A stretch of DNA of 64,000 bases from Marsupella aquatica (lineage: Eukaryota > Plantae > Marchantiophyta). Both the position numbers and the translations under genes were made by a program. Below the pieces are notes generated by a model. The model saw nothing but the letters and a program-made list of their open reading frames with translations, did no database searches and was not told the DNA's origin. Position 1 is the first letter of the stretch. Every line of letters begins with the position of its first letter. Positions 3,759 to 51,268 of this stretch are shown one piece after another. Where the stretch lies: positions 12,850,359 to 12,914,358 of the forward strand of contig OZ316893.1 in the NCBI GenBank assembly GCA_973895155.1. Direction: 5' to 3'.

Positions 3759-3919
3759 CAGAATTTGCTTGATGGGACCCAAAATATTTGCATGATGGAC
3801 CTCAAAATGAAACCTCTTACTTGATAGGACCCTGATTGACCTTGAATCAACGTCCCCAACATTTCAGGGTCCTATCAAATAAGACAATTCATTTTGGAGT
3901 CCTATCAAGTAAATCCCTC
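3759..3919. mobile_element. MITE-like foldback element (possibly Mutator-derived)
   Basis: Ends GAATTTGCTTGATGGGAC / GTCCTATCAAGTAAATCC are inverted. Inner arms TTGATAGGACCCTGA / TCAGGGTCCTATCAA. Possible 9-bp TSD AAACAAAGC / AAACGAAGC. Confidence 0.5.
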
Positions 3920-20719: not shown

Positions 20720-21020
20720 TGTTGATAAAACTATCTAGCATGACTAAGATACCGGAACAGCCAACGGGAAGCACATAAGTACTCGGGGAAAGGGCAAGGA
20801 GTGCAGGGGGCGACAAAGAGGCGCCGCATAGTAGAAGAGCCCAAGAGAAGGGGCGAAAGCATCAGATGGATGCAACCTAGATCTAAAGGTAAGCAGCAAG
20901 GGACAGAAGACGACAACGAACAGAAAGTGGGCCCGTATACTGAAGGGGAAAACAAGGTACTGAAGATCGGCCCGTATACTGAAGGGGAAAACAAGGTACT
21001 GAAGATCGTAGTTTCCAACA
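20720..21020 (-). repeat. 3' LTR of copia element (301 bp)
   Basis: TGTTGATAAAA...GTTTCCAACA; identical by eye to 25600-25900; contains a 41-bp internal tandem duplication. Confidence 0.97.
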
Positions 21021-21028
21021 CCCCCTCT
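21021..21028 (-). other. Polypurine tract (AGAGGGGG)
   Basis: CCCCCTCT on the plus strand directly abuts the 3' LTR. Confidence 0.85.
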
Positions 21029-21134
21029 CGATCTGAAGCCGCAGAAAACAAACGGGAGAGAGAGAGATGATGCAGGTCAGCGAGAGTACCACTGTAGGTA
21101 TAGTGCGGGAGTGCAGTGTACACATATGATGAAC

Positions 21135-25469: not shown

Positions 25470-25587
25470 GGCTAGATCACGTTGGGAACTCTCACCAACT
25501 GAAATAGACGGAGGGACAGGTCGCTCAAACTCAGAGAACTCTCATCTAAGTGTAGCGTTGGATCTTAGTCATGGGAGAGCTAACCTT

Positions 25588-25599
25588 GCTCTGATACCA
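25588..25599 (-). other. Primer binding site, tRNA-iMet type (TGGTATCAGAGC)
   Basis: GCTCTGATACCA on the plus strand directly abuts the 5' LTR. Confidence 0.92.
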
Positions 25600-25900
25600 T
25601 GTTGATAAAACTATCTAGCATGACTAAGATACCGGAACAGCCAACGGGAAGCACATAAGTACTCGGGGAAAGGGCAAGGAGTGCAGGGGGCGACAAAGAG
25701 GCGCCGCATAGTAGAAGAGCCCAAGAGAAGGGGCGAAAGCATCAGATGGATGCAACCTAGATCTAAAGGTAAGCAGCAAGGGACAGAAGACGACAACGAA
25801 CAGAAAGTGGGCCCGTATACTGAAGGGGAAAACAAGGTACTGAAGATCGGCCCGTATACTGAAGGGGAAAACAAGGTACTGAAGATCGTAGTTTCCAACA
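25600..25900 (-). repeat. 5' LTR of copia element (301 bp)
   Basis: Same sequence as 20720-21020. Confidence 0.97.
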
Positions 25901-30082: not shown

Positions 30083-32310
30083 ATGGTTCTTCTGGGCATG
30101 GCTACGAGGTATGTTCTCTCGGTGCTCTTCGCGATCCACCTGTTCGGTGGAGCAACCCTGAGGGTGGTTGCAGCCGATACCTTGAGCTTGTGTCAAGCTC
30201 TGGATCCGTCTCCTGAGCTGGAACCATTCGTCGATGAGCTCATTCAACCGCCTGAAATTGACATTTCGACCGGCTCACCGATCACTCTAGGGGCTTACAA
30301 GATAAAGCAGGTGCATAACCTGCAAATCCCAACTACTTTAGCCAATTTGACGACTATGATGAGGATTCAAAGGCTTTAGATGAAATATGAACTTCGCTTT
30401 TGGGGTTTTTTGGTAAGGCTGTCATTGGGTTCACTTGTATTTAGGTAGTTACTCTGGAGAGTATTAATTTCTGAGTGCTGGCCATTGAAGTGAAGAAGCA
30501 TGCAACGTTCTTGACTCAAGCTTAGTTGTTGAGGAAGCTGCTACTGTCAATTACGTACATACATACAACCTTGTTTTGAGCGCTCATGCTAAAACTTCAT
30601 TACATAGTCCATGACTTATGGACTTCTCAATTCCTCTCACGTTCATAGGGAAGAGAACTTCTTGTGGTTAAGTACTGTAAAATTCTCGGAATCGAGCGCA
30701 GGTATGGCATGCAGTGCCTGGTAAGTTCTTGTCTGGCTCGATCATATACTGATTTCAATCGGTTGAATGTACGAGTGTGTGCGCAGAAGCTGCATAGAGA
30801 TCTACCGGAGACAACACTATACGCTTACGGGTCGAGCCAGGAGGTAGCATCATCTCCTGGTCCGACTCTGATCGCCACCAGGGGAATTCCATCGCATGTC
30901 CGATGGGAGAATCACATGCACGATATGTACCATATACTGCCGGTCGATGACACCATAGCCTGGGCCAAACCCAAAAATGGAGGAATCCCCCTAGTCACCC
31001 ACCTCCACGGCGGAGAAGTGCTGAGTGAATCAGACGGGAACCCTAATAGTTGGCACACTGCAAAGGGAGACGTGGGCTCGGACTACACGACCAACAACTA
31101 CACTTACGCCAATTCTCAGTCCCCGGCGATGATCTGGTACCACGACCACACGGTGGGCATCACTCGCCTCAACATGGTTGCCGGCCTGCATGGCTTGTAT
31201 CTCATCCGCAGTTCCGAAGAGCCCCGAAATCTTCCCAGTGGAGAATTCGAGAAATTGCTGGTGCTCCAAGATAAGTATTTTTTCCCGGACGGAAGCATCA
31301 ACTTCCCCAACGTTGGTATCTCGCCAAACATCCACCCCGCCTGGTGTCCGGAGTATTATGGCGACACAATTCTAGTGAACGGAAAGGCCTGGCCTTTCCT
31401 CAATGTGTACCCCACCAAGTACCGATTCCGATTGCTCAATGCTGCCAACGCCAGATTCTTCGTTCTCACTTTGAGCGGGGAGCCCAGGCTGTCGTTCATT
31501 CAACTAGGAACTGATCAAGGCTATCTCCACACTTACAGGACGAGGAAAAATTTCACACTGGGTCCAGCCGAGAGAGTGGACTTCGTCATCGACTTCTCCA
31601 AAGTGAAGCCTGGACGCTCCGTGGTCCTTCGCAATTCTGGGGCGGCTCCTTATCCGGAAGGAAACCCTGCATTCAGCCCTCCCAGTACGCAGGTAGTCAT
31701 GAAATTCAATGTCGTCGCTTCCCCAGAAAATGTGTCTCTCCCAGAGTTTAACATCCCGAAGACTCTCTCACCGAAAGTGAGGATCAGCACCGAGGGAGCC
31801 ATTCGAAAGACGATGACTCTCACCGAGAACGACGACGACGCAGGCAACCCTGTTAACTCGTATCTGAACGGATTCAAGTGGATGGACCCCGTGACAGACA
31901 TTTCGGTGCTGAACTCCACCGAGATTTGGGAAATTATCAATCTCACCCAGGACGCGCATCCCATGCACATTCATTTGGTTGCTTTCATCGTGAAGAGCCA
32001 CCAAGCATTTGACACCGAGAGCTACGAGGCCGGGAACTGCACGTTGGACAGAGAGTTTGGAGACCCCGAGAGTTGCTACACTGAGGAACCTCAAGGTCCA
32101 TTAGCGGATCATAAAGGATGGAAAGACACTGCTGTTGTGTATCCTGGGAAGGTTACGCAGTTCGTGGTTCGGTGGACCACCCAGAGCGCGGAGCCCTTCA
32201 GCTTTGATGCCACCAGTGGCCCTGGATACGTCTGGCACTGCCACATTCTAGATCACGAGGACAATGACATGATGCGGCCGTTGAAGGTGGTCAATGCCAT
32301 AGAAAATTAA
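30083..32310 (+). CDS. LPR1: Second LPR1/LPR2-like multicopper oxidase; exons 30083-30310 and 30787-32310
   Basis: Signal peptide and LEPFVDEL in exon 1. Phase-0 intron 30311-30786 (CAG|GTGC ... GCAG|AAG CTG) at the same position as in the first paralog. Motifs THLHG, WYHDH, HPMHIH and WHCHILDHEDNDMM. Confidence 0.93.
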
Positions 32311-32571: not shown

Positions 32572-35027
32572 CTAGCTCAATACCCGTGCGTTGCACAAAA
32601 GAAGTCGTGTCGGTCAAGAGGTCATTGAGAAAAAAAGATGTCGTGTCGGCCAAGAGGTCGTTGAGAAAAAAAGATGTCGTGTCGGCCAAGAGGTCGTGGA
32701 GAGAGAAGATGTCGTGTCGGCCAAGAGGCCATGGAGAGAAAAGATGTCGTGTCGGCCAAGAGATCATTGAGAGAAAAGATGTCGTGTCGGCCAAGAGGCG
32801 GTGGAGAGAAAAGATGCCATGTCGGCCAAGAGGTCGTGGAGAGAAAAGATGTTGTGTTGGCCAAGAGGTCGTTGAGAGAAACGGTGTTGTGTCGGCCAAG
32901 AGGTCATGAAGAGAAGATGTTGTGTCGGCCAAGAGGTCGTTGAGAGTAAAGATGTCGTGTCGCCCAAGAGGTCGTTGAGAGTAAAGATGTCGTGTCGCCC
33001 AAGAGGTCGTTGAGAGTAAAGATGTCGTGTCGCCCAAGAGGTTGTTGAGAGAAAAGAAGTGGTGTTGGCCAAGATGTCGTTGAGAAAAAAAGATGTCGTG
33101 TCGACCAAGGGGTCGTTGAAAGAAAAGATGTCATGTCGGCCAAGAGGTCGTGGAGAGAAAAGATGTCGTGTCGCCCAAGAGGTCGTTGAGAGAAAAAGAA
33201 GTTGTGTTGACCAAGATGTCGTGTCGGCCAAGAGGTCGTTGAAAGAAAAGATGTCGTGTCGGCCAAGAGGTCATGAAGAGAAAAGATGCCATGACGCTCA
33301 AAAGGTCATTGAGAGAAAAGTTGTTGAGAAAAAAAGATGTCATGTCGGCCAAGAGGTCGTTGAGAAAAAAGATGTCGTGTCGGCCAAGAAGTCATTGAGA
33401 AAAAGATGTCGTTAAGAAAACAATTGTCATGTCGGCCAAGATGTTGTTGAGAAAAAAACTGTCATGTCGGCAAAGACGTTGTTGAGGGAAAAGATGTTGT
33501 GTCGGCCAAGACACTCTTGAGGGAAAATACATGTGCGTTGCACAAAAGATGTCGTGTCGCCCAACATGTTGTTATGTGGAAAAAATCATGAAGTAAAGAT
33601 GTCGTTACAAAAAAAGAAGTCATTTTGCCAAAGATGTCATTATATGAAATATGTTATCAAGAAAAAAGGTGTCGTTTCACCCAAGCTATCGTGATGTGAA
33701 AGATGTTATGACATAAAAAGTCAAGGAGAGAAGGAGCGAGTCTTTTTCTTTGTTGTTCTTTTTTACCCAAAATACCCCTTCATTTGAATGATGACCACTT
33801 TATAAATTGGTGCAACATTATATTGTCGGTTTCAGATTTAGGTTTTAGCAAAGATGACCATTCTGTCGGTATCCTTTCAATCCTCGTGCGTTGCATAAAA
33901 GATGTTGTTTGGTTAAAGATGTTGTTGAAAAATAGATTGTGGTGCAAAATATATCGTTGAAATAAAAAATGTTAAATATATTATTGCACAAAAACTTTTG
34001 TTGAGTGAAGATATCATTGTGCAAAATAGTGGCTATGGCAGCCACAAAAGTTCCCTTTTCTTTTTCTCTTTTTTCTCCTTGCACAAAAAAATTCTTGAAT
34101 AAAAGATGTCATTGCACAAAAGACTGGCTATGACAACCACAAAAGTATAACAAAATGAGAGGTGTTTTTTTCCTTTTTTTCCTTTTTTTCTCTCTAATAT
34201 TCCTTTCAAACCTTAACCTCCCCCTTTTCCCCATTTTCCTATTTTTGGTCTTCTCTTTTTCACATTCCCCATCACTCCACTCGTTCGCCGCCCCCCCCCC
34301 CCCCCATGTGAGATAGAGGGGCTACTCTACATTGCAAGTGTGCCCCTCGCCTTGCCATCAACCCCCATGCCATGCGCTTCACTATGTCTTTGGGCTTATT
34401 TATTTATTTTTTTGGCATTAAAAATGACACTGCAATGACTGTAAAAATCACCACAAATATTGGGAGAATAGTTTTTTTGTTGATCTAGTGACTAAAATGT
34501 TATTAGCAATTAAACTACTCTCACCAATATTACACAAAATTATGATGCACACAATATTGAATATGTACAATGAATCACAAAATTATGATGCACACAATAT
34601 TGAATATGTACAATGAATATATACAATACAAACTTGCATATGAGTATGACTATACAATACTTACTTGTATACCTTGTTGAGGCCCTTCCTAGCCTTAATT
34701 GGTTTTGAAAGGTCCCAGCAGCCCTTGGCAAAAACCTTAGCTGCTGTGCCTAGTTTGAATTTGGCGGCATATGTTTTGGCCAATGACGTGCATTGATGTA
34801 TCCTCCTTGATCCTCGTGCATTGATCCGTGTGCATGTTAAAGTCTTTCACTTTTTTTTGTGTATGGTGTGATTGTCTTGGACACTGGTACAACTTTTTGT
34901 GACTCACACTAAATTCAATTCAAAGCTTTATTGCTTACCTTTGACCAATTTTTTTAATTTTTGTGCCCTGCAAATTTGAATGACGACCACTCTAAAAAGT
35001 GGCGCAACTGTGTATTATAGTTCTTGA
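32572..35027 (-). mobile_element. Non-autonomous Helitron, probably compound (two units)
   Basis: Minus-strand 3' end reads GTGCAACGCACGGGTATTGAG-CTAG|T (hairpin plus CTAG, 32572-32600). 5' end reads A|TCAAGAACTATAATAC at 35027, giving an A|T insertion site. A second 5'-like end lies at ~33836 and a second hairpin at ~33885. Confidence 0.6.
32597..33700. repeat. 35-bp minisatellite (~25-30 degenerate copies)
   Basis: Unit TGAGAG(T/A)AAAGATGTCGTGTCG(G/C)CCAAGAGGTCGT, e.g. 32941-32975 and 32976-33010; it decays to the right. Confidence 0.92.
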
Positions 35028-35984
35028 TAGCTGACATTCCCTGTTCAGAGAAGTAAATTAATAATCGCTCAAAGAGCATTCTCAAGCACTTTCACGTTTT
35101 GATCCTTCTGGGTCGTCGATTATCACTGTATATGTAATGGTTGACATTGACTTTAGTTGCCTGGAAAGCAATTTTTATATTGGTCGATTTGATGCTCCTA
35201 TATGACCTCTCAATAGTTTGTCTTATTCATACTTTATGCTGTGCATTTTTTATTTTTCAGTGTGCCTCCTTTGTGTTATTTAGATTTTGAAGTTATTTTG
35301 GCATCCCGCTTCATGTTATTCATCTTAGTTTGCCATCCTCGAGCTCTTGTTTCCCACTAATTTTAGATTGAAATATTGTGCGTACAATCCCTTTAGCAAG
35401 CTCTTCTTTCACGCTAATTTCAGATTTCAATATTGTGCGTACAATCCTTTTCTCAAATCTCAAGAAATTATATCACTTGAAGCTGATATTATCTCTTCTC
35501 ATGAGTGAGAGAAAAGTATCAAATTCTAAATCATTGCAGACACCTCGTGTTTTAGTTATCCTCGGTGGTTTTGTTTTCTAGGTGATTGATTTAATGCCAT
35601 TACCTAAGGTGTGAGATCTGTAGGTTAATTAAGTGCACAAGGCAAGCCAGTATATGTACTTTATGTGCAATACTTACTTTATGTGCACAACTATTCAACA
35701 CCTTTGTACCATAGATTTGTACTTTTCCTGGTCATTTTATTTAAAAAATACTTCCCTTGCCTCGCTGTACTTTATACTCTTGCATTCTATCCCAATCTTA
35801 ACAAATACTATGCAACAGTCAAAAAGAAATTTGATTAGTTGCACATCACTACTAGAGAAAGAAATGTAATATGTTGTGTTATGAGCATGCTTTACTGTTA
35901 TTTGTCGATGCAAACGTAGTACATGAAGACCAGGCAACCCTAATAGTTTGTTACTTTCTAAATGGCCAGTTTTTTTGTTTTGTT

Positions 35985-36125
35985 CTTTTGTTTTAAAATA
36001 AAAATTTTAAGTGAATTCTGTGAAACCCCACAGAAAGAGAAGAGCCAGTCACAACAGTTGAATCTAAGATCTACAGTCTCTAATCAACAAGTGAGCTACC
36101 ACAAAGTCATGCCTCCATGGGCAAA
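35985..36125 (-). mobile_element. Dispersed SINE-like repeat, copy 2
   Basis: Similar to 10278-10382, with an A-rich tail on the minus strand (TTTTTTGTTTTGTTCTTTTG on plus). Confidence 0.4.
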
Positions 36126-36480
36126 TGACCAGTTCTTATGTTTACTTCAAACATATCAAGTGCAAACTAAGGGAACTTCATGCTAATTTCCGGTTTCAAT
36201 ATTCAAATACAAAAATCAAAAACATTTATTGATTTAGCTGTTTTGGGACTACTTCAATTAAATAATCCGTCCAAAGTTGAAACTTTTTGTTCAGACTGTT
36301 TTCATTCACTTCTTGGGAATGTGATGCTAAAGTTTTTTGTTCCCTTTGGACTCACCATCAAAATTCCTCAACGCTCTTTGGTTTTGGCTTGCTGCCCACA
36401 GCATTGCGTGGAGGTACAAAACTCTAGATGGACTAGACATCAAACTTGATAGACCTTACACTTCTTTAAAACCCACCTAC

Positions 36481-36505
36481 ATCACCCTATTCATTAAAAC
36501 TGGAA
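36481..36505 (+). repeat. Left terminal inverted repeat
   Basis: Inverted match to 48970-48994; preceded by CTAC. Confidence 0.85.
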
Positions 36506-37281
36506 TTTCTCTAGTCCAGAAGTTGACCTTCAAATTTCTTATTTTACCCCCAAAAGTTCTATAACTTGTTCCCCAAAAGCATATATTTTAGTGGCCAAAT
36601 ATACACTTTTTGAGGTCTAAAATTACAATTCTAATGCCCAAATTATTAATTAAATATTTCAGTTATCAATTATTAATACTTATTAATTAAAAGACAATAA
36701 AGTGTTCTTATTATATACAATATAAACAATGAAAAAATAGAATAAGACAATATAATAAATTCAAATGACCCGTGATAACCAAGTTACACAAACAGGGAAG
36801 GTAAACCAGTGATGTATTATAAAAGTAAAACACCTATTTTTACAGGGTCGAGACCACGTTTGCCCCAATGCAGGCTCTAGATGGTTTTGACCGGTTGTTG
36901 AATGTATATCAATTACTATGTAAAAATCTATGTCGATATTATCTCGACCCAAATGTAGGGTCCACATAATTTTGACCCGTTGTTGAATCTATATCTCTAG
37001 CTATTCCCTTTGTATAGGGTCGAGACCCAAATAACCTTTTTCTCTACAAGTAAAAGAGGATCAACAGCATCTAGACTCAATTGGATCTACAACTCACATT
37101 GTAACTGTCAGTGTAGGGTCGAGATAATCTAGACCCAAATCTCATGCTCCTCCACCCCGCAGAATTCATTTGAGCAAGTAAATCTAGACCCTGATTGGTC
37201 ATATTTCATATCACAATTGCAGAAATCGAGAGGCTTCCTATTCCAGAACTTCGTGGTGAGGTCCCTACACCTCAAGACTTC

Positions 37282-38403
37282 CTAAACAAATCCCCGATGA
37301 TTGTCTCTGTAGGGTCCTGTGTACTGATATCCAATTAACGTCTTTGCAAGGTCGTTGATCGCCTCCTCCGTCAATTCCTTCATTGGTGGTAATTGTTGCA
37401 CTTCATTCTTGACATCCCAAGGAATTTTGTCCGCTATGACATCCAAGACTGTATGGATAACCGAATGAACCCATACCATACTACCCCACCGCTCCGTCAA
37501 CAACGCATAAATGGCAGCCTGTTGATCTCTGTCCGCTAAAACATTTATCATAGACCACTTTGGATGATTGATAAAAAGGTAGTGCTGAAGATTGAAGGCA
37601 TGATACAATTTCCTGAGCATAGGCCATAGTATTTCTGGAAAGAATGTATCATCCGTGGAGTGATGCGAAAATGAGGAAGGAAACAACCCACAATTCTCTG
37701 GATTCGCAAATGCCTTCATTGGAGTGTCATCAAGAAGGAGTGTATTAGTTTCGTCGTATAATCCACCATAACGTTTCCAAACCACCCTCAAATCCTTCAA
37801 ATGAATATTTGCCTTCCCATCAGTAATGTCAGGCCTTTGGATTCCAGTATCGAATGTATCTTCTTGTGTGAGAATAAACTTGAATTGCTCTCGCTCTTCT
37901 TGACTGAAGATCAAATGAATCATTTCATCTGTCCTGGGTTTCCTTACACAAGTCCAAATGGCAACATCAAATAACGAAAAAGCTGCGATTAAGAACTCGT
38001 GAAGATGGGGTCGCTCAACATACATAAAGTTAAACCCTCCACGTCTCCCCCAGTGGACACCCTTGACACTTGTTGCACTACGGCGCGGTCTGGAACTTGT
38101 CGTTTTGACAGAATCCCAACACATTTTGTTGAGGTCAAGAATCAATAGCTTCCGTCTGATCGGACCGTGAAGTGGAGGCAAGGGTCCTACAAACAAGGAA
38201 CACCAATGTTAGAATTGTGGAAGATAAAACAAAGGAATGCTCGAGACGAACTCGAGCATCACAAGTGAATGAACAACAGTCAACGTCATACCTATTGTTG
38301 GTTGAAGGTTAGTAGTTGAAGAAATCTCAGGACATCTTTGGAGATTATTGTCGACGCACTCCACAACTGGTAAGGGCCCGCCTATTTCTGTGAAGGTAGA
38401 CAT
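37282..38403 (-). CDS. FCP1/SCP (NIF)-like HAD phosphatase domain carried by the transposon; exons ~38403-38292 and 38186-37282; possibly pseudogenised
   Basis: Motifs KLLILDLN, VERPHLHEFL, FDVAIWT, LKDLRVVW and TNTLLLDDTPMKAFANPEN. Phase-1 intron 38291-38187 (ATAG|GTATGA ... TTTGTAG|GACCC) keeps the frame. The frame continues past the TAG at 37282 into a Cys-rich tail. Confidence 0.75.
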
Positions 38404-41400
38404 AATAATTTAGACGGCTGAATTTCAGGGCTGTTCAAACTAACTTGGGTTTCAACCTCACGTGCTGAAAGACCCAAATTCATCTAGAAGGTTATCTCCT
38501 AGTTGGTTTTGGATGTCCAAATTTATCCCTCCGAGAAGGGTCTTAACAAGAGCTGGCTCAGACCAAACTGGCACTAATTTGAACTTATCCTTCCTATACT
38601 TTCTAGATCGAATAATCTTCTTAGACTGCTCATACTGACTTGTTGACCTTTTGACGGTCCATCAGTCCAAACATAATGAGTAGCACTTGCTTTGAGTGAT
38701 TTGTAACCAGTTCTACCAATTTCAGTCCCCGATTTCCTAACAAAAGGGAGAATTACGGGGCTTCCAGTAGAAGAATCTGTGAAAACAAGCTTATTCTCTG
38801 AAGCGCAAAACATTTGGTCCAAGGGAGAGGACGATGCACCTGCCTCGTCCTGAGGGGGAGTATGGCAGCCACTAGCTTTCTTAGTAGAGAAAATCTCATC
38901 TAGTTGAGGAGGGCTTGGAATTGGTCTCGGGGGTCTCACTATATGGGGACCTCCCCATCGCCTGCGACGTTTTTAGGCCTCGGACCCCCTAAAATGTAAG
39001 AAAAACATTAATTTTTTAACCCCTATAAAGTTGGAATATTCTTGGAATATTCTAAAAATTGGATTAAAAAGACCCTAATGTTCTTATAAGTCTCAAAATT
39101 GAATTTAAAAGACCCTATTGTTCTTCTACAAAAATTCTTAAGTCTTCCCTTAGAACCAATAAAATGACCCTATCCTTCCTCGCACGTGATATGCCATTTT
39201 TGTGGAAGTGAAACCCCCGAGGAATTGGTTGGCTAATTGCATCCTGCAAGGTGGATTCCTAGCCAACATCCAAGGTTGAAGACTGTTCTTCATGTTGTGC
39301 ATCCCCAAGGTCACCCGATGAAGGAACACCTGGAACGTCGAGATCATCTCGAGCATCATTTCCAAATTCAGGCAATATTTCACCCTCCTCTTCCATGTAG
39401 CTTGTGATTTTCGAGCCCTCCATTTTGCGATGCTCTAAATTCTCCGCAAATACTTCCTCATAAACATTGGCTTCCATTGGAGCTATGTCTAAGGCCGCCT
39501 CTTCTATTACAACAAGAGGACCGACAGTAATTTCCTCAGATGGTAACGACTCCTTGGGTGGCACATATAAAACCTGCTTGTTGTCATGAAGGAGCTGAGC
39601 AAAGGCTTCTGTGAATTCCATCTCTTGAGCTGTGTCCAAATACACAAAACAATCACGACCAAGAATGACACAAGCTTTCAATGTCTGTCCTCCAGAGAAG
39701 AAATCCAACACTGTATGACATGGGCACGAGAAATAATCAACAAGACGCTTTGTCATTCACAAAGGCTTTGCTCTCGGATTTACAAAGCCACCACGCCGAC
39801 CGACCATCTCATAAGATGGGGCCATCTTCTCCAAAACTTCGACATCAACAATGGATTCATCGAGCTTGTCTTTCCCCTTTGATTGGTCTTCGTTGTTCCC
39901 AGTAGGGGCCTTCAAAGGCAAGACTGTGAAGTCTCTGTCCCACTTCTCACTGTAGTTCCAGAATGCATAAAAGTCATCAAAGAAAATTTGGGACCAGTCT
40001 GGTTCCTCTTCACAACAAATTCCCCCAAAGATGATTGAGTCTCGGGCTCCAATGAGAAAATCTCCCTCCTCCTTGGGCAGCTAATCACGGTAGTAGCTCC
40101 CGTACTCCAGCTTTGTGTGGACTTTTTTCTCACGATGAATCTTTTCAAAGGCACTCTGAATCTGGCCTATTATTGGGCCTTGACGGACAAAAAATATTAC
40201 TAAGAGCTCTGTTGAGTTCGCCATCTGCAAACAATACTCTAGCAAGACAAAAAATTTGGCATCTATCCACTGCCGTTGTCAAAGACGACCAAAATCGAGA
40301 ATGGAGAGTGGGCACTTCCTTTGCACCGAGTCAACAATCTAAAGCTTCATTGTCTTCATCAAATTATCACTAAAAAATGTGCGATAAGGAGTATCCTCCA
40401 TTGAAGGCAATCCGCCAAATACCTTGCAATATATTTGTTCAAGCCTAACAATGAGACTTTGCGGAAATGGGTCTTTTGGCCTATTTCTTTTTAGGAGGTT
40501 GGAAATCCAAACCTTTCCAGCAAGTTGTCTAAGTTTTGGCAACTCACCACGATCCATAAATGCAGGCAAAAATTGAGTTAGCTCAAACCAAGTGAGTGAA
40601 TTGGCAAACCGATCCGGATACTTCAAAACAAAGTACTCCACAATTTTTGCCCTCAGCTTGGTCATGACTTTGAAAGTACGAGCCATATCACTCATTGATT
40701 GAACATCAGATTTGTTGGCTAGGTCTTTCTTCAATAAAACCTTCTGTTATTGAACGGCAGTAAAAACTTTCAGAATGTCGTCACTACTCAGGTCTCCTTC
40801 AAAGCATCTAAACCATGCCGGCGTAATCATTTTTGTTGTCCGGGATTTCCCATTTATTTTTGAACCTAACTCCCCTAGACCATCCAGAAGAAGTCCCTTG
40901 ACCCAATCGATGCACATTTGTCTCCAAGTTCGGAAGAGGTTCTCATCCAAAAACAACAACCAAAAAATATTCCTCAGATCGGATTTTCCAGTCGTTATTT
41001 TGGCAAGGGCCATAAAATCCTGATCCAAACAGTACAAAGAAAATCTGAGGCTCGAGACGATCTCGAGGTAGAATTAAGAAACTATGGTAAAATTATGGGA
41101 GAATACATGAAGATAAATCAAATACAGAAACTTGACCTCGAGGCTCGAGACAATCTCGAGCTAGAAGTGGATTTGAGTTTGAATTTACCTGGAACTTTTG
41201 ATGATCCGTTAGTCTATTGGATCCAATCACGGGTCTCTCCGGACGGCCACACTTGTCAAACTGTCGACGGGCATGGACCATAGTATCAAGAAAAAAGGAC
41301 TCATACTCCATGGTCTTATTAACAGCATTTGCCCTTTGTGAGTGTTGAGCAAGTATTGTTCTTGGAGTTCTGTCCGAAAGAATTCGTGACTTTCGATATT

Positions 41401-44400
41401 GCAGACTCTTCGCGACCTCCTTCAACTTTGCATCGCTCTTAGCCTTTGCCGAGTGTTGTCCACTGATTGCAAGGAACTGCACCTTCTTACTCTTAACACC
41501 CCACTCGAACTCCTTTCGATCCTCAGCAGTATTCTCATAATGGAGCAACTGCAAACTCTCTCTTGAATACGGAATTAAATCCGCCATAGCTGGTACCATT
41601 CCAGGGTTTCTAACCATGGATTTTGCGACCTCCATGGCATGGTCTTTATTGAACATCCTATATACCAAAACTGCAGACGGAAAATCTATACTAGTGACAG
41701 GAATGTCAAAAGTTTCATTCATGCCAAATGTGTAATACTCCTCAATCTCCTTAAGAACTTCGGCTCCTTCCTTAACGCTCATTTCTCCCGGAGCATCTCC
41801 TGGAGTGCCATCATCATCGGTATGTGCATTCACACCCGAGGAAGATGCCGGAATGAGATCTACCTTGGGTGGCGTGGATTTTTTTTGAGGTGGAGCCTTC
41901 TTTGCTTTGCTTTCGGGTTTCTCAACCCTCTTCCTCTTTTGAGACACCTTTGCTTTCTTTTTGTCCAAACCTGACGTCTTGTCTCCCGCAGCTACAGATT
42001 TCAATTTACCTGTTTGTCTCCGATGAGACAACACCCACTTTTTACAAGCATCCTCGTCAAATTCTCCGGCTCCAAACACAAAATCAGAGGATATCAATTC
42101 AAACTCCCCCAATTTGGATTCCGACATTAGTCTCAAAACCTTTCACGTGAAAGGAGTCGTGAATGCATCATCACGATCAAACCCATACTTTCGACAATAA
42201 AGGAATCCAAAAATTATGTCCGCTCCAGATATTGGAGTATCTTCTAGCAAATTACTTGTAGTATAACCCTCGGGAAAGAACCTCATTGATATCACGCTCA
42301 GTTGTTTCCTGGCTGCACGTTCAATGTTAAGATCGCAAGAGTAGTTTTTGGTGTGAAGTCTAATTAGAGCCCACTTCCCTGTCTCGTGGTTCTCCACCGT
42401 CAAAACCATGTCCTTACCGTTACTCGTCACAATAGAAAAAATAGGCCCTAGAAGGCTGCACACTAGAGGATCGATTGATGGAGACCTCGTCTTCACACAA
42501 ATAATAGTTCCTTCCATGTCTTCAGTTTCAGCAAGCTCAATGGCCCAACAGAATCCAAATAAACCCTGTCCAGGGCAAGAAACCTTGATTGCATGTTCAT
42601 CTTTGACTACCAAATTAGGCGATCCCAATTTCGCACGTGGTACAGCCAAAATGTAGCAATTGTCAGAAACATGTACTACAAAACCAAGAAACAAATAGGT
42701 GGCTCGAGATGATCTCGATCTTCCTTTTAAGTTTAATAGTCTGACATGTTCCAATGCCATTTCATCCATGGAATTTGAAAAGAGATTTCAAACCCAAGAA
42801 ATCTAAAAAGATAACACAATAGGCTCGAGATGATCTCGAGCCACCATCTGTTTAAAAGATCTCGATCCTCATATATATCAGTTGAGGTTTTATTCCATTG
42901 CATATCATGAACCAGTCAAATTTAACGAACAACATTTTCAAGAATGATCCAATGTCACCTATTCGACCACATTCAAAACCCTCTAACTCAGTGGTTTGTC
43001 ATCTTCACAAACGAGTTGGAGGACTAAGAAAGTGGTCCAAAAGGCAAGCTTGGATCACAATGAAAAGGATATTAGTAATTGACGACATGGAGTCCTTCCA
43101 ACTGGAAGAAATTGGCCAAGGGATACGAATGACCATAAAGGAAGATGGTGAGGGATATATTTGGCTTGAGACAATCTCGAGCCTAACATGTCAAACGAGT
43201 GATCCGAATATCATATTCAACAATGAACATCATATTCAATCAATGATTAAAATCCACTTTCTCCATTGATTTCTGATACCCACAAACCCGTTCGGATGTC
43301 AATAATCAGAACGAGTTGGAGGGTACAGAAGTCCCTGGAGGAAGGAAATTTTAGATTTTTTGGATATGATGTTTCACTTTTGAAGGATAAGGGTTTCCAA
43401 CTTGAAGAAATCTCACTAGGTCACATGCAGGAATTTCATATTGGCTCGAGACGATCTCGAGCCTCATGCCACTTACATCAAATGCAAAATCAATTGATAG
43501 ATCACAACTTTTGAAGCAAAGTATTGCAGAAAACATCAATAGGCTCGAGATGATCTCGAGCCTCAACTGCACCCAAGGAATCCAGAAACAAGTGGACCAA
43601 TTGAAGCTCGAGACGATCTCGAGTTAAACCTGAACAGAACAAAGATGATGAATTACGTTTAATGGTGCGATGGATCTAATGCGCTGAGTCTAGATGGGTC
43701 TGAAGCTCTTCGCCAACGGTTGCAAGGTTGTACTCAGCGAAGTCCTCCTTGGAGAAATCTACAACAGTCGACATGGCTGGTGAAGAGAGGAATGTACTAC
43801 GGTCTGAGAACTTAAAAACAAATCTCAAGCCTAAACAAAATATCTCAACCCTATCGAAGCTCGAGCTTAAACACAAAATCTTGACCCTATAAAATCTCAA
43901 GGAAAAAACCTAATCTCGACCCTCTGCAATCTCGAGGCTAATACAAGGATCTTGAGGCAAGAGCGCAAAACAATCTAGAGGCAAGGAGGCAAGGGACGCG
44001 AGGAGGCGAAGAGGCGAGGAGGCGAATGTGAAAATGGGGAATTCAAAACCCCTGAAGCCACTATAAGCCCCTCGGGGGTCGGCCTTGGCCGTGCCAAGCG
44101 TGCCAGGGCTCGTGCAGGCTCAGGCAGGCTGCCACGCAACCTGCTGGGTGCGTACAGTCATTATTACGGTCACACATGTTGTCATTATTGTTATCCGTAC
44201 TTCAGCCCTGCCGTGAGTTTAGCCGTGACACAAGTTCAACGAAGCCATCTTATTGGCCTTTTTGTCTGTCAGGGTTTTATATATTGCTTCTCTTTGGTCT
44301 CCAGTGGGTCATTCTTCTCATTTCGTTTCATTGCTCGCCCGTTTCTCCCTCTGCCTCTCTCTCCCTCTCCCTCTCCCTCTCTTTGGCTCTAGATTTCTGC

Positions 44401-45427
44401 TCTGATCTCTTTCTGTTGTTCTTTTCAAGGGTTGTGGACTCTACGTTTGTGTTTAGGATATTTCGAGAAATTCTCATTTTAAGCCCTGAAGGAGGTCTAA
44501 AATAATTGAGCTCCTATCTTTTAGAAAACCAAACCTTTTCAGCTTATACTAGTGTCGGTCAAAATCCATTTGGAAGCCTTTTCCCTCTATTTGATGGCCT
44601 TTTAGAAGCTATTTCTCAGTTTCTGGAAGTAAACTGGGAGCCTACTTTCTTAATTGCACCAAATCATTTCTCTAGATCATCTAGAGCCATTTATATGTTC
44701 TTATTCTGGGTGGCTTATTATTCATAATAGTTTCTTTGTCAAATGCAATATCCTTTTTGGCTCGAGATCATCTCGAGTCATAAGTTTTATCCTCAAACTT
44801 ATTCACTTTTGCCTTCTTTCTAATGGTGCATTCGGTTTTCCTTCTTATAATTGAGTTTGTAGAGAGTCAGAGGTATAGAATCTGAATTCGCTATTCAGTG
44901 AGATTTCATATTTTACCTCGAGATCGTCTCGAGCTAAATACTTCTGAATTTTTACCCTTTCCTCACAATGGAGCCGATACCGTTCAGGAAGCATTGGACA
45001 CTTTTGTATTCTGGAATTTAAAGGATGTTACTCGGAGGAGTTCTTCCCAGGATATTCTAAACGACCTGTCCACACGGGATGTTTTTTCAAATTATAATTT
45101 CAAGGATTATAGTTTGCGTTCTAATTGGATGACCAAGGAGGTGGAATTGTATGCTGAGGATAATCGGACCAAAGTGGGGGTTGGCATCATCACAGTTCCT
45201 TTCAAGTCAGGTGCAATTGATGATGATGTTCTTGGACCAGATCACGTTGGGGTTGCTGTCACACCCGTGATTGACCCTCTATTTTTCCCAAATATCTCCC
45301 CAGGAGTGCTTGGTCTTGTTAGGTGGGCCGTCCGTTCACTTCTGCTGATATCAAGGGGTATTTTTCTTCTGGATCTCATTGAAGAGGTTTCTCCAAAACC
45401 AATTATTGATGATCGAGATCATCTAGA
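38240..45427. repeat. Dispersed 17-bp palindrome CTCGAGAnnnTCTCGAG (~13 copies)
   Basis: Copies start at 38240, 39337, 41051, 41144, 42703, 42824, 43165, 43445, 43544, 43607, 44761, 44917 and 45412; several carry 1-2 mismatches. Confidence 0.9.
39259..42769 (-). pseudogene. Transposon-borne ParB-like plus N4/N6 DNA-methyltransferase-like protein (~1100 aa), broken by in-frame stops
   Basis: ORFs 42143-42769 and 41093-42136 share one frame; 40747-41037, 40339-40734 and 39259-39756 share another. The two blocks join via phase-0 intron 41188-41020 (CAG|GTAAAT ... GGATCAG|GAT). ParB-like FLAISGQHS; beta-MTase-like VNPRAKP*MTKRLVDYFSCPCHTVLDFFSGGQTLKACVILGR. Further 5' exons probably extend to an ATG near 43773. 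Confidence 0.65.
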
Positions 45428-48119
45428 GGTAGATATGAAAGGTGACATTGAGTTTTCAAAGCGCCCGTATAATTTCATCAAGAGAACGAAGGTCAACCTA
45501 GATGAAAAAAGAAAGAAGCACTTGGAGTCTCGGGCGATACTGAAAATCACAAAGGAGGAAATTGACTCCATCCAAAAAGAAGGTTGTTGTAAGTTGAAGT
45601 GTTGCCTCAGCATGCCGAGAGAAGACCTACAGGCAATAAGGAGGGAATACCATGGGATGTCAAGCGACAACAAAACCAGTCACATTCTCACTCTTTTTGG
45701 CTGTAGGGAGAAGGAAGTGGATACAAAAGGATATTTCGTTGTAAGAAGTAGACTTGTTTGCAAGGGTGCATTTATTAAAATGCATGGATTCAGCACTGCC
45801 AAGTATTATGATTACAAAAATCAATATGAAGCAGGTTGCACGGTTGGATTCCACGGAAACAAGGGTTCACACAAGACACGGGGAAGCACCTTGCATGCTC
45901 GTGCTTTGTTGGAGTCCATTATAACCCAAAACGGAGAACCCATGCCGCATCTTCCCTATGGAGGGTCTCACGGGATTGACACGGTTGAGTACAGACTTCC
46001 ATCTTGTTTCACGAAGAAAGAGATTTTTGAGGAGGTATACTCAAAAATGGAATTAGATGGCTACATGAAGGTGAGTGAAAACACTATGTATAAACTCTGG
46101 AGTGAGTCCTTCATGAATTTTGACTTTCACAAGGGAAGTGCATTTGCAAAGTGTACACTTTGCACTGAGTTCAAAGATCAGTTGATGCGGGAGAAGAGAA
46201 AGAAAGAGCGTTTGGAGATTGAGGAAAGAAGAGCTCGCCATCTTCGTGAGCAAATGTCTAGGAGATATATTTACTATGCTCATAGGGTTCTTGCGAAGAA
46301 GGATCCTGAGAACTATCTTTGCATTATACATGACAAGATGGACCAGGCCAAGACATGGATCCCTAGGTTGGTCCCCACTCCTAAATCATTGTCTGGTAGT
46401 GGTCAATCGCTCCCCATTGCGCTCACTGGGATGTTGACCCATGGAAGGGATCCCGGAGTGTATGCTCACTTCAGTTTCACTGGGCTTTGGCCGGGAGATG
46501 CAGACTTCACAGTGACATCATTGGCCAAGTGCCTTAGAGATCTGGAGGATTACAAGGGGGACAAATCTGGAGACCTCCTTGAAGGATTATATTGGGCTGC
46601 AACGAGGCCAATTTTTCAATCTCTTTTGGACTTTGAAGCATTTCTCGCAGGTTACTTAGAACCCAAAAAAGTCTCAATTGCTAGATTTCAAGGAGCTGAA
46701 GATGACCAAGACTACTTTGGTGTTGATCCCAAGGCTACGTCTACCTCTTTCAAACCATTGCCAAGGCACCTGACCTTGTAAATGGATAATTCAGGGAAAG
46801 ATAACAAAAACCAGTACGTGATGGCATTTTGCAGTGAGCTTGTTAGTAGAGGGGTTTTTGAAACAGTGCAGATGTCGTTTCTCATGGTTGGTCACACCCA
46901 TGAGGATGTTGATGCATTGTTTTCAAAAGTATCCAACCAAGTGAAGTACAAGGAGGTTTCTACCCTCTTGGGGTTGATGGCTGAGGTTTGGGAGTGTGAA
47001 AGCATTCATCCTGTCCCACGGTTGATCCAAGAGGTTGCAGCTTACAAAGAGTTTTTGAAAACTTTGAAGGTAAAAGACATAGAGGGTCACTCAATACCAG
47101 TGGCATTTCTTTTCTCTATGAGAGATAATGTTCCAATATATCAATACAAAGCACATGTGAAACAACCTTGGTACCCTCCAACCGGAAGGTCCATTTGGAG
47201 AACTGATTCCAGCACCAATGCTCTCATTTTACCAGAAGGTCAACCATTTGCAAAACCCATCTCCGGGGATGTACGAGGCAAGGTTGAAGAAATCATCCCA
47301 TTCCTTAATCGTTACATTGAGTTTTTGAAGAAGAGTTGTAAGGATGAGACCTCTACAGCATATCGTGAGCGGTTTCCTTTGGTGAAATATTGGGAGATGG
47401 TGGTGCAAGTATTATCTGGGGAGCTTACAATTGAAGGGGAGGCAGAAATACAGTTAGCATTGACATATGAATTCTGGCCAAAAACCAACCACGAAACTGG
47501 TTACAAGGTTAATAGTACAGGAACCTCTGAACCATTGGGGGAGCCTAGTAGTAGTACACAGAATCCACAAATGGTGGAGCTTCAGAATGAGTACCTGGAA
47601 GAGATGGAGGATCAAGCTGCAACATTTGTTGGTGCTCGACACGAGCGAGAACTTGCACGTTGGATTCCTCTGCAGGACATTCAAGAGGGTCACTTTGTAT
47701 TTCTCCGTCCAGAGGATGAATGGGAAAAGAAGAATGGGAAAGAACGTTTCTGGTTGGTGAGAGCTTTGGGTGTTGTGGACCCAAACCATGAAGTTCCTTC
47801 AGGACACTTGCAATGCAATGAGAATTCTCCTACTAGTACACAGTATGCTCCTATGTTCCAAGTGCAATGGTGGAGGCCTAAACATGGTAAGCATGATGCA
47901 CCGGATCATGTGCGATATTCACGTTGCTTTCAAACCACTAAGACTTGGGAGGTGGATCCTGGGTTTGACAGTGCCACTGAATGTTGGCAATTTGCTAATT
48001 CTGCTATGTATGGATTCAAGTCACGCTCTAGAGAAGAAAATATAATTGATAGAGGTTTGACCATTCCCAAGAATGTTTTGAAAACACTCAAAACCTACAT
48101 GGAAGGGATTGTTGAGTAA
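44898..48119 (+). pseudogene. Sola-like/DUF7869 DDE transposase with one premature stop (TAA 46779-46781)
   Basis: ORFs 44898-46781 and 46782-48119 are adjacent and in frame. Motifs CCKLKC, KCTLC...H, IHDKMDQAK, HLTL*MDNSGKDNKN and FLMVGHTHEDVDALFS. The stop replaces the usual Q of LQ(L/M)DN. True start uncertain. Confidence 0.85.
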
Positions 48120-48596
48120 GTCAAATGTTTTTTAGTAGTCACTCTATCAGAGTGAGGGAGTCTATGTCATTTAGTTTGGAATTAGACATGTCAGAGTGAG
48201 GGAGTCTATGTCAATTAGTTTGGAATCAGACATGTCTTTAGTACTTACTGTTGGTTAGTACTAAGTAGTATATATATCTATTTAAGTAACTAATTATTAT
48301 AATATTTTGGGATACTAGTTTGATTAGGTGGAGGTAATTGGACTTGGATACCTTTATAATTTCTTTAATTAATTATTATATCAATACAGACTATATATTA
48401 CATGAAGTCTTAATATCCATGATAGGATGTGAGTGCCTCTTAGTACTGTCTAGTAGTAAACCTTAGTTTCAACTCGAGTTGCTTAGAATGTAACAAATTA
48501 CTTGTCTGAATGGATAGTAAGCCAGGTATCATTCAAATTTAATATATTAAATGCTCTCAATTAGTAACTAAGTAGAAGGTTAATTTAGCTAGCTAA

Positions 48597-48737
48597 GGGT
48601 AGAGATCATATTGAAGCTTTACTAGTTATATGGGTAGAGATCATATTATTTGAAGCTTTACTAGTTATATGGGTAGAGATCATATTGAAGCTTTACTAGT
48701 TATATGGGTAGAGATCATATTGTTCAAGCTTTACTAG
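48597..48737. repeat. ~35-bp tandem repeat, 4 copies, in the transposon 3' subterminal region
   Basis: GGGTAGAGATCATATTGAAGCTTTACTAGTTATAT repeated. Confidence 0.85.
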
Positions 48738-48969
48738 ACACATATTCTATTAGTCAAATTGAATCAATGTAAGTAAGTTCTACTTCTTATCCAACATATT
48801 TTACATTATTATCACCCAAATGTTTTTCTTTAGAATCCAAATTAATATTTCATTTTCTCCTATGTACAATCTTGATCCCCCAAATGTACAACTCCCACTG
48901 CCCAAATGTACAATTCTTGTGCCCAAATATATATTTTTTGGTGCCTAAATGTCCAAAGATCAAAGAATT

Positions 48970-48994
48970 TTCCAGTTTTAATGAATAGACTGAT
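48970..48994 (-). repeat. Right terminal inverted repeat
   Basis: Inverted match to 36481-36505; followed by CTAC. Confidence 0.85.
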
Positions 48995-51065
48995 CTACTT
49001 AAACTCACGAGTGCTCCTTCCCAACTCTCAATCCATCATTGAAATTTGTTGTCCCTTGACATGAAAAGGAACTATCCATGAAGGGAACTCCAATTGATGT
49101 TCCTGGACATGCTGCCGCCAAGGCGGCCCGGCTCAAGGAGGAGGCTTATGTGATTCGTTACCCAGGGGATGTTTTTACCCTTTTGCCCCTGAGGCCTTTG
49201 GTGCTCTCCACCCTCGTTTTGACCACTTCCTTTGAGCTTGTGTTATGTTTTATATTGAGCGGAGGTCTTTTCCCCTGTTTCTGTCTTCATTGCCTTCTTT
49301 CAACAAAAGGTGTCAGTGGCACTTCAGAGGGCCTAGGCTTTCACTATTCTTTGTAGGGCCGAGGCAGTCGATTTTAGGGCCTCTAGACAAATTCCCTCCG
49401 TGACCCTCCTACCTGCCCTCCTATGCGGTTTACTCCATAGCTCTACCAGACTTTTCAATTAAAGTCAGGTAGGGTTTTTAGTTTGTTTTTGCTTCTTAGC
49501 TTTTTTGTTGTGTGGGAAACTCCTTGGCTTGGTGTGTCTCTTTGGTCTTCTTGTGGTCTTTCCCTTCCCCCTTTTCTTGGGTTCTTTTGCCTTTTGTGAT
49601 CTGTCTCCAGGTTCGGCTATCTTTTGGGCTATCTTTTTGACACTTTGATATATATAATAACTGAGTGATTTGAGACCACTTATCGTTGTGGGGGACTTAG
49701 TCTCGCATTCTCAGTGGAGTCGATGGAGGAACGTTAAGAGCAGCATTTTAGTAGTTGAGTCAAAGCTCGGAATAGGATTCATAACTCTACTATAAAACAA
49801 AAAGTTCAGTGGATCTCATCTGAATTTAAAAGGTAATGATGAAGTATGACACGTGAAAAAGACTGTGATTTAAGCAAAACTACTATTTGGAAGTTGTATG
49901 CGAGCTGCGACTATCATGCTCGAGGCTTGCTTAATTACTCGTCCGGGTTGCAAGAGTTTTGGGTGCGCGATACTTGTCTTGATCTGTTCTATTCTTTCTT
50001 GTGTGGATTCGATACTCGGAGGTGGACTGGGAGAAACTCAGTCAAGCAACTAGGCAGCTCTCCTGTTCTTCCATTCTAATTGTTGCGTGGCTGGAGATTG
50101 AGTTCAGCTCTCGGTTGAGCTGGTTTTGCGAGCTGTGGGTCTTAGTTAGGAACATGGATGAGGCGCAGGTGTGGGCGTTGGTCATCATGAAGAATTAGTC
50201 ACAGTGTGACATTGGTGGTTGGAGTGGTGACTTTTCCATGATGGTAATCTGCGTGAGATCGATAGCATGGTTGGCGCAAGCAAATGAGGAAGGGAGGGAG
50301 GACTACAGAGTACGCAGGCATGACTGAATGCTGGTGCTGCCCAGTTGGTTCCAATTCAAAGATGATGGCATGCTGAGATCCTGCCAGGAGACGCGATGGT
50401 GGTGACTCGTCCTTGCGGTGAGGTGCGGTGAGGTGTTGGCAGACTAGCCAGACACTATGGTTTGGACGAAGTATTGATTGACTTCATTAAGTATTGATGA
50501 CTTCATTTTAATTGGTTGTAATCTAGGCCTTTATCGTCAAAGTACGTATCGTGTCGACACGACAAATGTGCTAAAGCAAGTGCTGGAGTTTCCTGCAATC
50601 TAAAAAGTGAGTCGAAGGAAAGCTGGTTTTCGTCAGCTGCTCCTGCTCCCTCAGAACGATCCTAGCAACATGGATCAAGCTTCTTGCGTTCTTAAACGAA
50701 GGGTACGTAGTATGTTTGGTGGAGTCACTGTTGCATGTGGCCAACGGCTATATCTGACTTGAACGGACAAGCAGCCACCACAGGGAACACTCAATAATTA
50801 CTGGCGCCACGTTTCTGTGGAATTGTTCAATGATCTGATGCTGGTGTCCTCATCCAAACGACCAAACGAGTGTGTTTTATTCCGAACTCGAGTTTGGACT
50901 CATGTACGTGATGAACGAGCAAGAGGAGGGGAGTGGCATGGAAAACTTTCTTGCTGACGTCTTACTTCGTCTACATTACGACCTTTTCGCACTTTTCGAG
51001 TGACGGAAGAAACAAGTGGAGAGGCAGCCAGAAGCCGAGAACTTGATCTACACTCGCCGCTGTTG

Positions 51066-51268
51066 AAAAAGAAAGTGATTTGCACTCGAGTGTGTTTGTG
51101 GTTGCCGCTCGGCCGCTCCTGAAAGAGAAAGTGATTTGCACTCGAGTGCCTTTGTTGATTCCGCCTTGAAGGAGAAAGTGATTTGCACTCGAGTATTTGT
51201 GGTTGCCTCCTTTTCGCGAGAAAGTGATTTGCACTCGAGTATTTGTGGTTGCCTCCTTTTCGCGAGAA
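51066..51268. repeat. ~46-56-bp tandem repeat, 4 copies
   Basis: GAAAGTGATTTGCACTCGAGT starts near 51071, 51127, 51174 and 51220. Confidence 0.8.

Follow-up and report, generated by a model that had tools for sequence, protein, structure and literature searches.

Results

A repeated palindrome in a liverwort transposon

We analyzed a 64,000-nucleotide stretch of the liverwort Marsupella aquatica (contig OZ316893.1, positions 12,850,359 to 12,914,358, forward strand; hereafter the window, numbered from its first letter). It harbors a 12.5-kb terminal inverted repeat (TIR) DNA transposon with a DUF7869 transposase and, in divergent orientation, an accessory arm whose main gene encodes a protein with ParB/Srx-like and methyltransferase (MTase)-like parts. 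A 17-bp palindrome, CTCGAGA-nnn-TCTCGAG, recurs throughout the accessory arm and around the promoter region, and it is probably the binding site of a dimeric protein that the element itself encodes. The element comprises the following features:

36483..48992, no strand: DUF7869 TIR DNA transposon, 12.5 kb, multicopy, this copy decayed (from the TIR pair and read depth)
36483..36505, plus strand: left TIR, starting with CAC; a similar end occurs in the related locus L002
48970..48992, minus strand: right TIR
37282..38403, minus strand: NIF/FCP1-type phosphatase-like open reading frame (ORF), exons 38403-38292 and 38186-37282 (PF03031, E=1.8e-16)
38458..41019, minus strand: accessory gene, exon B, with helical region, beta-class MTase-like domain, acidic linker and C-terminal domain
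38926..39220, no strand: high-copy miniature inverted-repeat transposable element (MITE), 295 bp, with TIRs and a 9-bp target site duplication (TSD), within exon B (joint 38916-39221, depth spike)
41189..42676, minus strand: accessory gene, exon A, with uncharacterized N-terminal domain, basic linker and predicted ParB/Srx-fold domain (SGQHS)
44060..44290, no strand: candidate divergent promoter with GC-rich core and outward-facing TATA-like boxes, axis of the orientation flip (inferred from sequence)
44937..48119, plus strand: DUF7869 DDE-type transposase with one internal stop at 46779 (PF25273, E=2.2e-33)

TIRs, a DDE-type transposase and multiple copies were found together, as in other TIR DNA transposons, and each end is flanked externally by AT, a possible 2-bp TSD at this one insertion site. 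In sequencing run X1, the left flank is represented without any difference by a unique contig (depth 17) that stops at 36508, and the interior by contigs with a depth of 320-440; this jump identifies a multicopy family, although depth does not translate exactly into a number of copies. All four runs (three organisms) cover the regions of the phosphatase, MTase, ParB and transposase. We detected 53 homologs of the transposase, many of them in Riccia sorocarpa, others in Ceratodon and, distantly, in bivalves. A scan of viral contigs found no DUF7869 transposase, a literature search for DUF7869 returned nothing, and we found no account of this element in literature searches that did not extend to Repbase or to most subscription journals.

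The copy in the window is broken by stops, a frameshift and the MITE, and other copies are sense at several such places and free of the MITE. Exon B alone contains several stops, a frameshift near 38631 and the MITE insertion. The MITE is Mutator-like, lies outside the family consensus and reaches a depth ~100-fold above that of the element in run X1. The flanks of the transposon (35500-36480 and 48993-49453) are themselves repeated in the runs and form a nested repeat region.

Number, placement and orientation of the palindrome

The palindrome occurs at the following positions:

36932..36948, no strand: degenerate palindrome, left subterminal (14.7 bits)
37118..37134, no strand: degenerate palindrome, left subterminal (21.6 bits)
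38240..38256, minus strand: palindrome in the 105-bp intron (38291-38187)
39337..39353, plus strand: palindrome in coding sequence, antisense orientation
41051..41067, minus strand: palindrome copy 1 of the 169-bp intron (41188-41020)
41144..41160, minus strand: palindrome copy 2 of the 169-bp intron
42703..43623, minus strand: six palindromes (42703, 42824, 43165, 43445, 43544, 43607), 5' non-coding region of the accessory gene, two of them within a decayed tandem duplication
44670..44933, plus strand: three palindromes (44670, 44761, 44917), 5' of the transposase ORF
45412..45428, plus strand: degenerate palindrome within the transposase coding region

The initial annotation of this DNA had reported about 13 copies, all inside the transposon. 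Our search found 8 exact copies in the window, 12 with at most one mismatch and 14 with at most two; all 14 lie within 38240-45428 and hence inside the element, while 0.2 copies are expected from first-order Markov shuffles of the 64-kb window. A position weight matrix (PWM) scan added the two degenerate copies near the left end and scored the 16 sites inside the element at 14.7-38.0 bits, the best site outside at 6.6 bits. It detected none in the 3' 2.7 kb of the transposase or the right end of the element. Half-sites of the form GG(C/G)TC(G/T)AGA cluster at 36840-37200 and 43860-43990 (21 inside the element vs. 2 outside), and a TCTAGA variant is recurrent among them.

The remaining 51.5 kb of the window, comprising host genes and other repeats, contain no palindrome. 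This bears on a scenario in which the element has recruited a dimeric host transcription or chromatin factor, in the manner of an enhancer that serves, for example, germline expression. Positions around a promoter and in first introns do fit plant enhancers, and the sequence-level selection described below would fit any binder. However, besides the lack of copies in host genes, the use of unrelated palindromes by different clades of relatives is more in line with an element protein that co-evolves than with a conserved host factor, and we consider such recruitment quite improbable.

As previously described, one copy sits in the 105-bp intron and two in the 169-bp intron; ten are located at 42703-45428. 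The further claim of a mainly intronic or 5' position holds for 12 of the 14 copies, while those at 39337 and 45412 are in coding sequence; given that 65% of the element is coding, this share of 2/14 is low (p=1.6e-4). The orientation flip across the divergent promoter was confirmed as well: on the sense strand the core reads T-Y-R in 13/14 copies, 39337 being the known exception, so that orientation matches transcription (binomial p=0.0009, the copies not being independent). The sense-strand cores are TCG in five, TCA in six and TTG in two copies, and TCA in reverse at 39337. They are better read as an ancestral TCG, with a central CpG, plus its two deamination products. Where the core is TCA, the palindrome takes an 8-1-8 geometry.

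CpG decay and selection on the site

The CpGs of the motif had been described as largely kept within an element that undergoes C-to-T decay. Such decay is evident, since C-to-T changes make up 21 of the 30 near-fixed differences that were picked from 40 of about 2,000 differences (7 CG, 7 CHG, 7 CHH). Retention, however, is a property of the arms: 24 of the 28 arm CpGs of the 14 copies are intact, one is deaminated and three are otherwise changed, while the central CpG is intact in only 5/14 copies and decayed in 9/14. Deamination thus differs between arm (1/25) and core (9/14) with p=8e-5, the copies again not being independent, and a search blind to the state of the arm CpGs recovered 12 sites with 1/24 arm CpGs decayed. 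Because arm and core lie within the same 17 bp, this contrast points to selection on the arm sequence and not just to local protection.

Variation among family copies agrees with this picture. Within 43400-43680, the one stretch tested, the four runs show variants at 0/42 arm, 2/9 spacer and 12/230 other positions, so that the arms are unchanged there, as expected of a motif kept within the family; none of the 16 listed variants falls in an arm. About two arm variants were expected, and the difference is not significant alone. With the sites masked, the observed/expected ratio of CpG in 500-bp bins is 0.35-0.86 up to 45982 and 0.39-0.00 thereafter. Likewise, with motifs masked, CpG/(TpG+CpA) amounts to 158/822 for the coding DNA that carries motifs and to 37/349 for the part of the transposase that lacks them (p=0.002); at equal distance from the promoter the values are 65/295 vs. 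37/349 (p=0.0009).

The decay pattern also bears on the idea that the motif acts as RNA, namely as a hairpin with a 7-9-bp stem and a 3-nt loop that would form in nascent transcripts and be recognized by a protein of the element or of the host for control of splicing or stability. The orientation along transcription in 13/14 copies and the location of 12/14 in introns or 5' non-coding sequence would suit such a hairpin, RNA folding gives -15.8 and -16.1 kcal/mol, and a double change at 44670 preserves pairing. However, none of the 28 arm CpGs carries a G-U-tolerated variant, although the core CpG decayed in 9/14 copies, and the sole arm deamination breaks a pair. Furthermore, the palindromes of relatives have 0-2 unpaired center bases, Rfam yielded no match, and a directional complex on the DNA or the history of duplications may equally account for the orientation. 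A role as RNA hairpin is therefore improbable.

Palindromes of related elements

For comparison we used 17 metagenome loci that encode a related transposase (identity 49% in one locus, 26-34% in the others). Repeated palindromes are present 5' of the transposase in 9/17 loci and not elsewhere in number. Locus L002 carries a TTTGGCCATATGGCCAAA-like palindrome (10 copies vs. 0.2 expected), L003, L004, L007 and L014 carry GCTCAAAC-n4-GTTTGAGC-like palindromes, and L006, L008, L009 and L011 carry GAAATCTAGCA-n2-TGCTAGATTTC-like ones, all patterns being defined from those same loci. The GCTCAAAC-n4-GTTTGAGC class has the outer half-site GCTC(G/A)A in common with the site of the window and a spacer one base longer. 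Each class forms a single branch of a quick transposase tree, in which near-copies make clustering easy. No palindromes were seen in the other eight loci, where only 4-1033 bases are available upstream of the match. In L006, the 5' region of the element itself recurs in inverted form at positions 2105-3880, fused to the transposase, which marks a chimeric or rearranged contig.

The relatives' copies sit in decayed tandem units, and in the window two copies fall within a decayed ~280-bp tandem duplication (duplication score 133.5 vs. a shuffled maximum of 64) and two have 35 bp of context in common. One might consequently regard the palindromes as a neutral by-product of local duplication or of cruciform-driven copying. 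In contrast to this expectation, identity among the copies of the window is 0.89 in the motif vs. 0.31 and 0.35 in the flanks, which is background level, and 0.76 vs. 0.30 and 0.35 in L002, both comparisons being partly circular as the motif was selected. Together with the different CpG decay of arm and core, this largely refutes neutral copying, which we find hardly credible.

A more serious contender emerges from the same loci. The palindromes could be internal sites of the DUF7869 transposase, or of its N-terminal repeat domains, for self-activation or synapsis, with the ParB-MTase as cargo or partner. In all nine palindrome-bearing relatives the sites directly precede the transposase and the contig shows no ParB gene, and the palindrome class tracks transposase clades. 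Moreover, the transposase of AtMu1c alone is reported to bind cognate motifs and to cause hypomethylation (bioRxiv 10.64898/2026.08.24.746577). However, its binding is described as TIR-centered (bioRxiv 10.64898/2026.08.24.746577), whereas the sites studied here are internal and highly asymmetric, with none in or near the right end and two degenerate ones near the left. Some of them also lie within introns of the accessory genes, at a distance of 3-6 kb from the transposase, and peptides compatible with a palindrome were found at the ParB-gene intron of two diverged homologs. Binding by the transposase is thus unlikely, though it is the main rival.

The accessory gene

The initial annotation had called the accessory product ParB-MTase-like, and the predicted folds support both halves of this name. 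Exon A shows 48% identity to homolog P0002 over 520 aa and exon B 35% to homolog P0001 over 645 aa, with P0001 ending at the same residue. The ParB-like domain (41180-41860) has 81 homologs; the one from Calypogeia fissa is spliced at the same intron, and those from Riccia run on into the MTase region. An AlphaFold2 model of the domain has a predicted local distance difference test (pLDDT) score of 84, and all 11 VIA matches with Z of at least 2 belong to the ParB/Srx superfamily (best match: Z 6.9, root-mean-square deviation 5.1, 121 aligned). Noc, PadC, ParB and KorB were the top fold matches, the best Foldseek E being 1.7e-3 to Noc. The domain is therefore predicted to adopt the ParB/Srx N-terminal fold, with modest scores and a consistent ranking. 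A PDB sequence search with the ParB alignment returned nothing below E 0.77. The N-terminal domain (41900-42676) is kept in P0002, P0003 and P0008-P0010 and has no Pfam match.

For the MTase part we used the intact homolog P0001, which matched RsrI with a Foldseek E of 7e-8 and both MboIIA and CcrM with Z 15.5. Motif I (VLDFFSGG) is kept near the C-terminus, i.e. in the permuted beta-class order, and the PF01555 match is below cut-off. A beta-class N6-adenine/N4-cytosine (N6A/N4C) amino-MTase fold is predicted from this model. Among the ORFs of the element, no ParA-like Pfam match was obtained. Scans of metagenome, viral and GTDB contigs confirmed no ParB-gene locus, and the search for a prokaryotic or phage relative of the ParB gene found none, the phage tblastn being empty.

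The homologs also provide a glimpse of the ParB intron, which prokaryote-style gene calls enter, giving read-through tails of 875 residues in 44 homologs. The tail of P0004 contains two peptides, the second in another frame, that are compatible with the exact palindrome, and the tail of P0082 contains one compatible with a symmetric palindrome variant. Overall, 82,957 residues contained 3 palindrome-compatible peptides; the read-through tails account for 2 of these and the other ~82,000 residues for one, with the second-frame match of P0004 as an extra.

The phosphatase ORF is separate from the ParB-MTase ORF and starts ~55 nt past the MTase stop. We rejected a single long ParB-MTase-phosphatase fusion with a third intron, since the gap is the MITE and P0001 shares the stop; a weak search found no longer MTase-phosphatase fused form. 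The motif of NIF/FCP1-type phosphatases is normally DLDET. Here it is DLNK, so that the protein is possibly inactive; it could touch phosphorylation of the carboxy-terminal domain of RNA polymerase II.

Other features of the window

Neighbors of the transposon are a malectin-like kinase, multicopper oxidases and a copia element, a gene content that indicates a land plant; the homologs of the element suggest a bryophyte. The copia element (20720-25901) possesses identical 302-bp long terminal repeats and an open 1468-aa ORF, which indicates a very recent insertion. Two intronless multicopper-oxidase paralogs (951-2489 and 30649-32310) share 64% DNA identity over 758 bp. An array of ~30 copies of a 35-bp unit covers 32577-33730, and four 46-56-bp repeats, each with GAAAGTGATTTGCACTCGAG, are found outside the transposon at 51069-51263.

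Discussion

Of the proteins that the element encodes, we tentatively favor the accessory one as binder: a dimer of the ParB/Srx-beta-MTase-like protein might occupy the palindrome and thereby keep the promoter and the accessory arm transcribable and less methylated. This preference over the transposase is based on the distribution of the sites, which extend along the accessory arm as far as its introns and are missing from the right end. Dimeric action on palindromes is established for both ParB proteins and beta-class MTases. The dimer would read the two CTCGAGA arms through the pseudo-MTase, the helical region or both, while the ParB/Srx domain could contribute nucleotide-dependent dimer closure or spreading. 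By binding the palindrome, the protein would mark the copies of its own family, and occupancy would counter host CG/CHG methylation, comparable to VANC on VANDAL elements and to VirB on H-NS-silenced DNA. The outcome would be anti-silencing or self-activation. Site and protein would co-diverge, giving each subfamily its own palindrome. Regarding the previously proposed cognate sites, an element-specific, selected motif enriched in non-coding DNA is well supported, and this protein is its tentative binder, ahead of the transposase or a host factor.

Several results weigh against the accessory protein. The main one is that a ParB or MTase match is found on 0/17 related contigs, which are short and 9 of which are palindrome-bearing. 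The ParB-less contig L011 spans ~8 kb upstream of its array, and L008, L012 and L013 span 3.5-5.9 kb downstream; none of the 17 contigs shows a left end, so that this negative applies to incomplete elements. At the protein level, SGQHS replaces the CTPase box in 30/41 aligned sequences (SGQHS/xGQHx), and no variant among the 41 has Arg at the last position, while the CTPase box of ParB is the arginine-containing GxxRxxA. SGQHS is presumably closer to the DndB/DGQHR type, and a DndB profile matched 2/41 ParB-domain homologs weakly. The helical region, all-helical in its model, was modeled poorly (pLDDT 34-76, from a 7-sequence alignment), and this low-confidence model gave no helix-turn-helix (HTH) match among the listed fold matches. 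Catalytic motif IV keeps the Asp and lacks PPY in 5/5 covering rows (ILDF, ILDF, FADF, FLDL, IADL vs. [DNS]PP[YFW]), and judged from these residues the enzyme is likely inactive. Turning to CpG content, the gradient is not significant within the transposase alone (21/138 vs. 37/349, p=0.22), the MTase exon, too, shows strong CpG loss when codons are controlled for (odds ratio 0.18 vs. 0.10), and gene origin could confound the contrast in coding DNA. This copy is itself decayed at CG and CHG sites. Finally, the P0082 pattern was generalized after being seen, and the tail matches are at the level of peptides, not codons.

One might speculate further that a transposon clade of non-flowering land plants imported a bacterial ParB-MTase, whose nucleotide-gated clamp with a dead-MTase reader loads at family palindromes in the nucleus, spreads over the element and shields it against methylation by the host, site and reader co-evolving in each subfamily. 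This extended scenario is doubtful at present, but if true it would represent a eukaryotic anti-silencer of ParB/parS type and a source of programmable epigenetic shields. To our knowledge, sequence-specific anti-silencing by transposons is documented in few systems, namely VANC, TnpA and AtMu1, all from flowering plants. The element would be an independent candidate assembled from bacterial components. Its 17-bp target is sharply defined and its subfamilies would supply natural pairs of protein and site, which makes binding, nucleotide use and effects on methylation directly testable in moss or liverwort models.

Comparison with known systems

Among known systems, VANC of the Arabidopsis VANDAL family of Mutator-like elements (MULEs) offers a close parallel in layout. 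There, too, an accessory protein is encoded by the transposon, and short motifs that differ between subfamilies have built up in non-coding DNA, namely in introns and in intergenic and terminal regions, with tandem duplication raising their number (PMC5735166). The motifs themselves are non-palindromic and 8-9 nt long (YAGTATTAY and AGTTGTMC), and CG hypomethylation is local near VANC sites (PMC5735166), where our element offers an indirect CpG-retention signal. In contrast to VANDAL, it is a DUF7869 element with an accessory protein of predicted ParB/Srx and MTase folds, and no ORF gave a MULE or VANC-type Pfam match. Based on Pfam and folds it is therefore not a member of the VANC system.

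The similarity to ParB-parS, Noc-NBS and KorB consists of the predicted ParB/Srx fold and of many dispersed 16-18-bp palindromes near the own gene. Unlike those clamps, the protein has a replaced CTPase box, is fused to an MTase fold and belongs to a eukaryotic host with introns. The label 'parS-like' of the initial annotation hence fits the repeated palindromes and the fold; it is an analogy, as the CTPase box separates the protein from classical ParB. Shigella VirB is likewise a mobile-element protein of the ParB superfamily that turned from partition to sequence-directed anti-silencing (PMC10653881), a role that we tentatively propose here. VirB keeps CTP binding and its HTH and offsets H-NS (PMC10653881), whereas the presumed silencer of our element is DNA methylation.

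Fusions of a ParB-type domain to an amino-MTase are described from phages and prophages, and DIRS1 sets a precedent for an inactive MTase borne by a transposable element (PMC4738411). Our element differs from these fusions in its degenerate motif IV and the palindrome arrays beside the gene (PMC4738411). The same survey of eukaryotic N6A-MTases lists no ParB-MTase of a land-plant transposon among the Physcomitrella and Selaginella entries inspected (PMC4738411), and a literature search combining ParB, transposable element, bryophyte and methyltransferase found nothing. Eukaryotic N4-methylcytosine (4mC) MTases, i.e. N4CMT of bdelloids (8s9n, Z 12.8) and DN4MT1 of Marchantia, resemble the MTase part in their beta-class fold and, in the latter case, in liverwort occurrence, and a bacterial origin is likely. 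Unlike it, N4CMT and DN4MT1 are enzymes of the host that are active and whose catalytic motif is intact. The sequence of motif IV sets the protein of our element apart from active beta-class MTases.

In terms of transposition, the DDE-type transposase with TIRs resembles those of Sola and CMC (CACTA-Mirage-Chapaev) elements by description, and the CAC start, together with the possible 2-bp TSD, is reminiscent of CMC. Physcomitrella is among the listed hosts of Sola1 (PMC9033089). A last lead comes from fungal Starships, whose DUF3723 is a conserved cargo of eukaryotic mobile elements with no assigned function (PMC9156397). Starships, in contrast to our element, use tyrosine recombinases (PMC9156397), and the ParB-like domain gave no PF12520 hidden Markov model match. 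However, the nearest named clusters of this domain (41180-41860) in the ESM Atlas score 0.95 and carry DUF3723 on 31% and 78% of their members. DUF3723 may itself be ParB/Srx-like, and although this is only a lead, the transposon of M. aquatica may offer a first handle on the role of ParB-like cargo in eukaryotic mobile elements, for instance that of DUF3723 in Starships.

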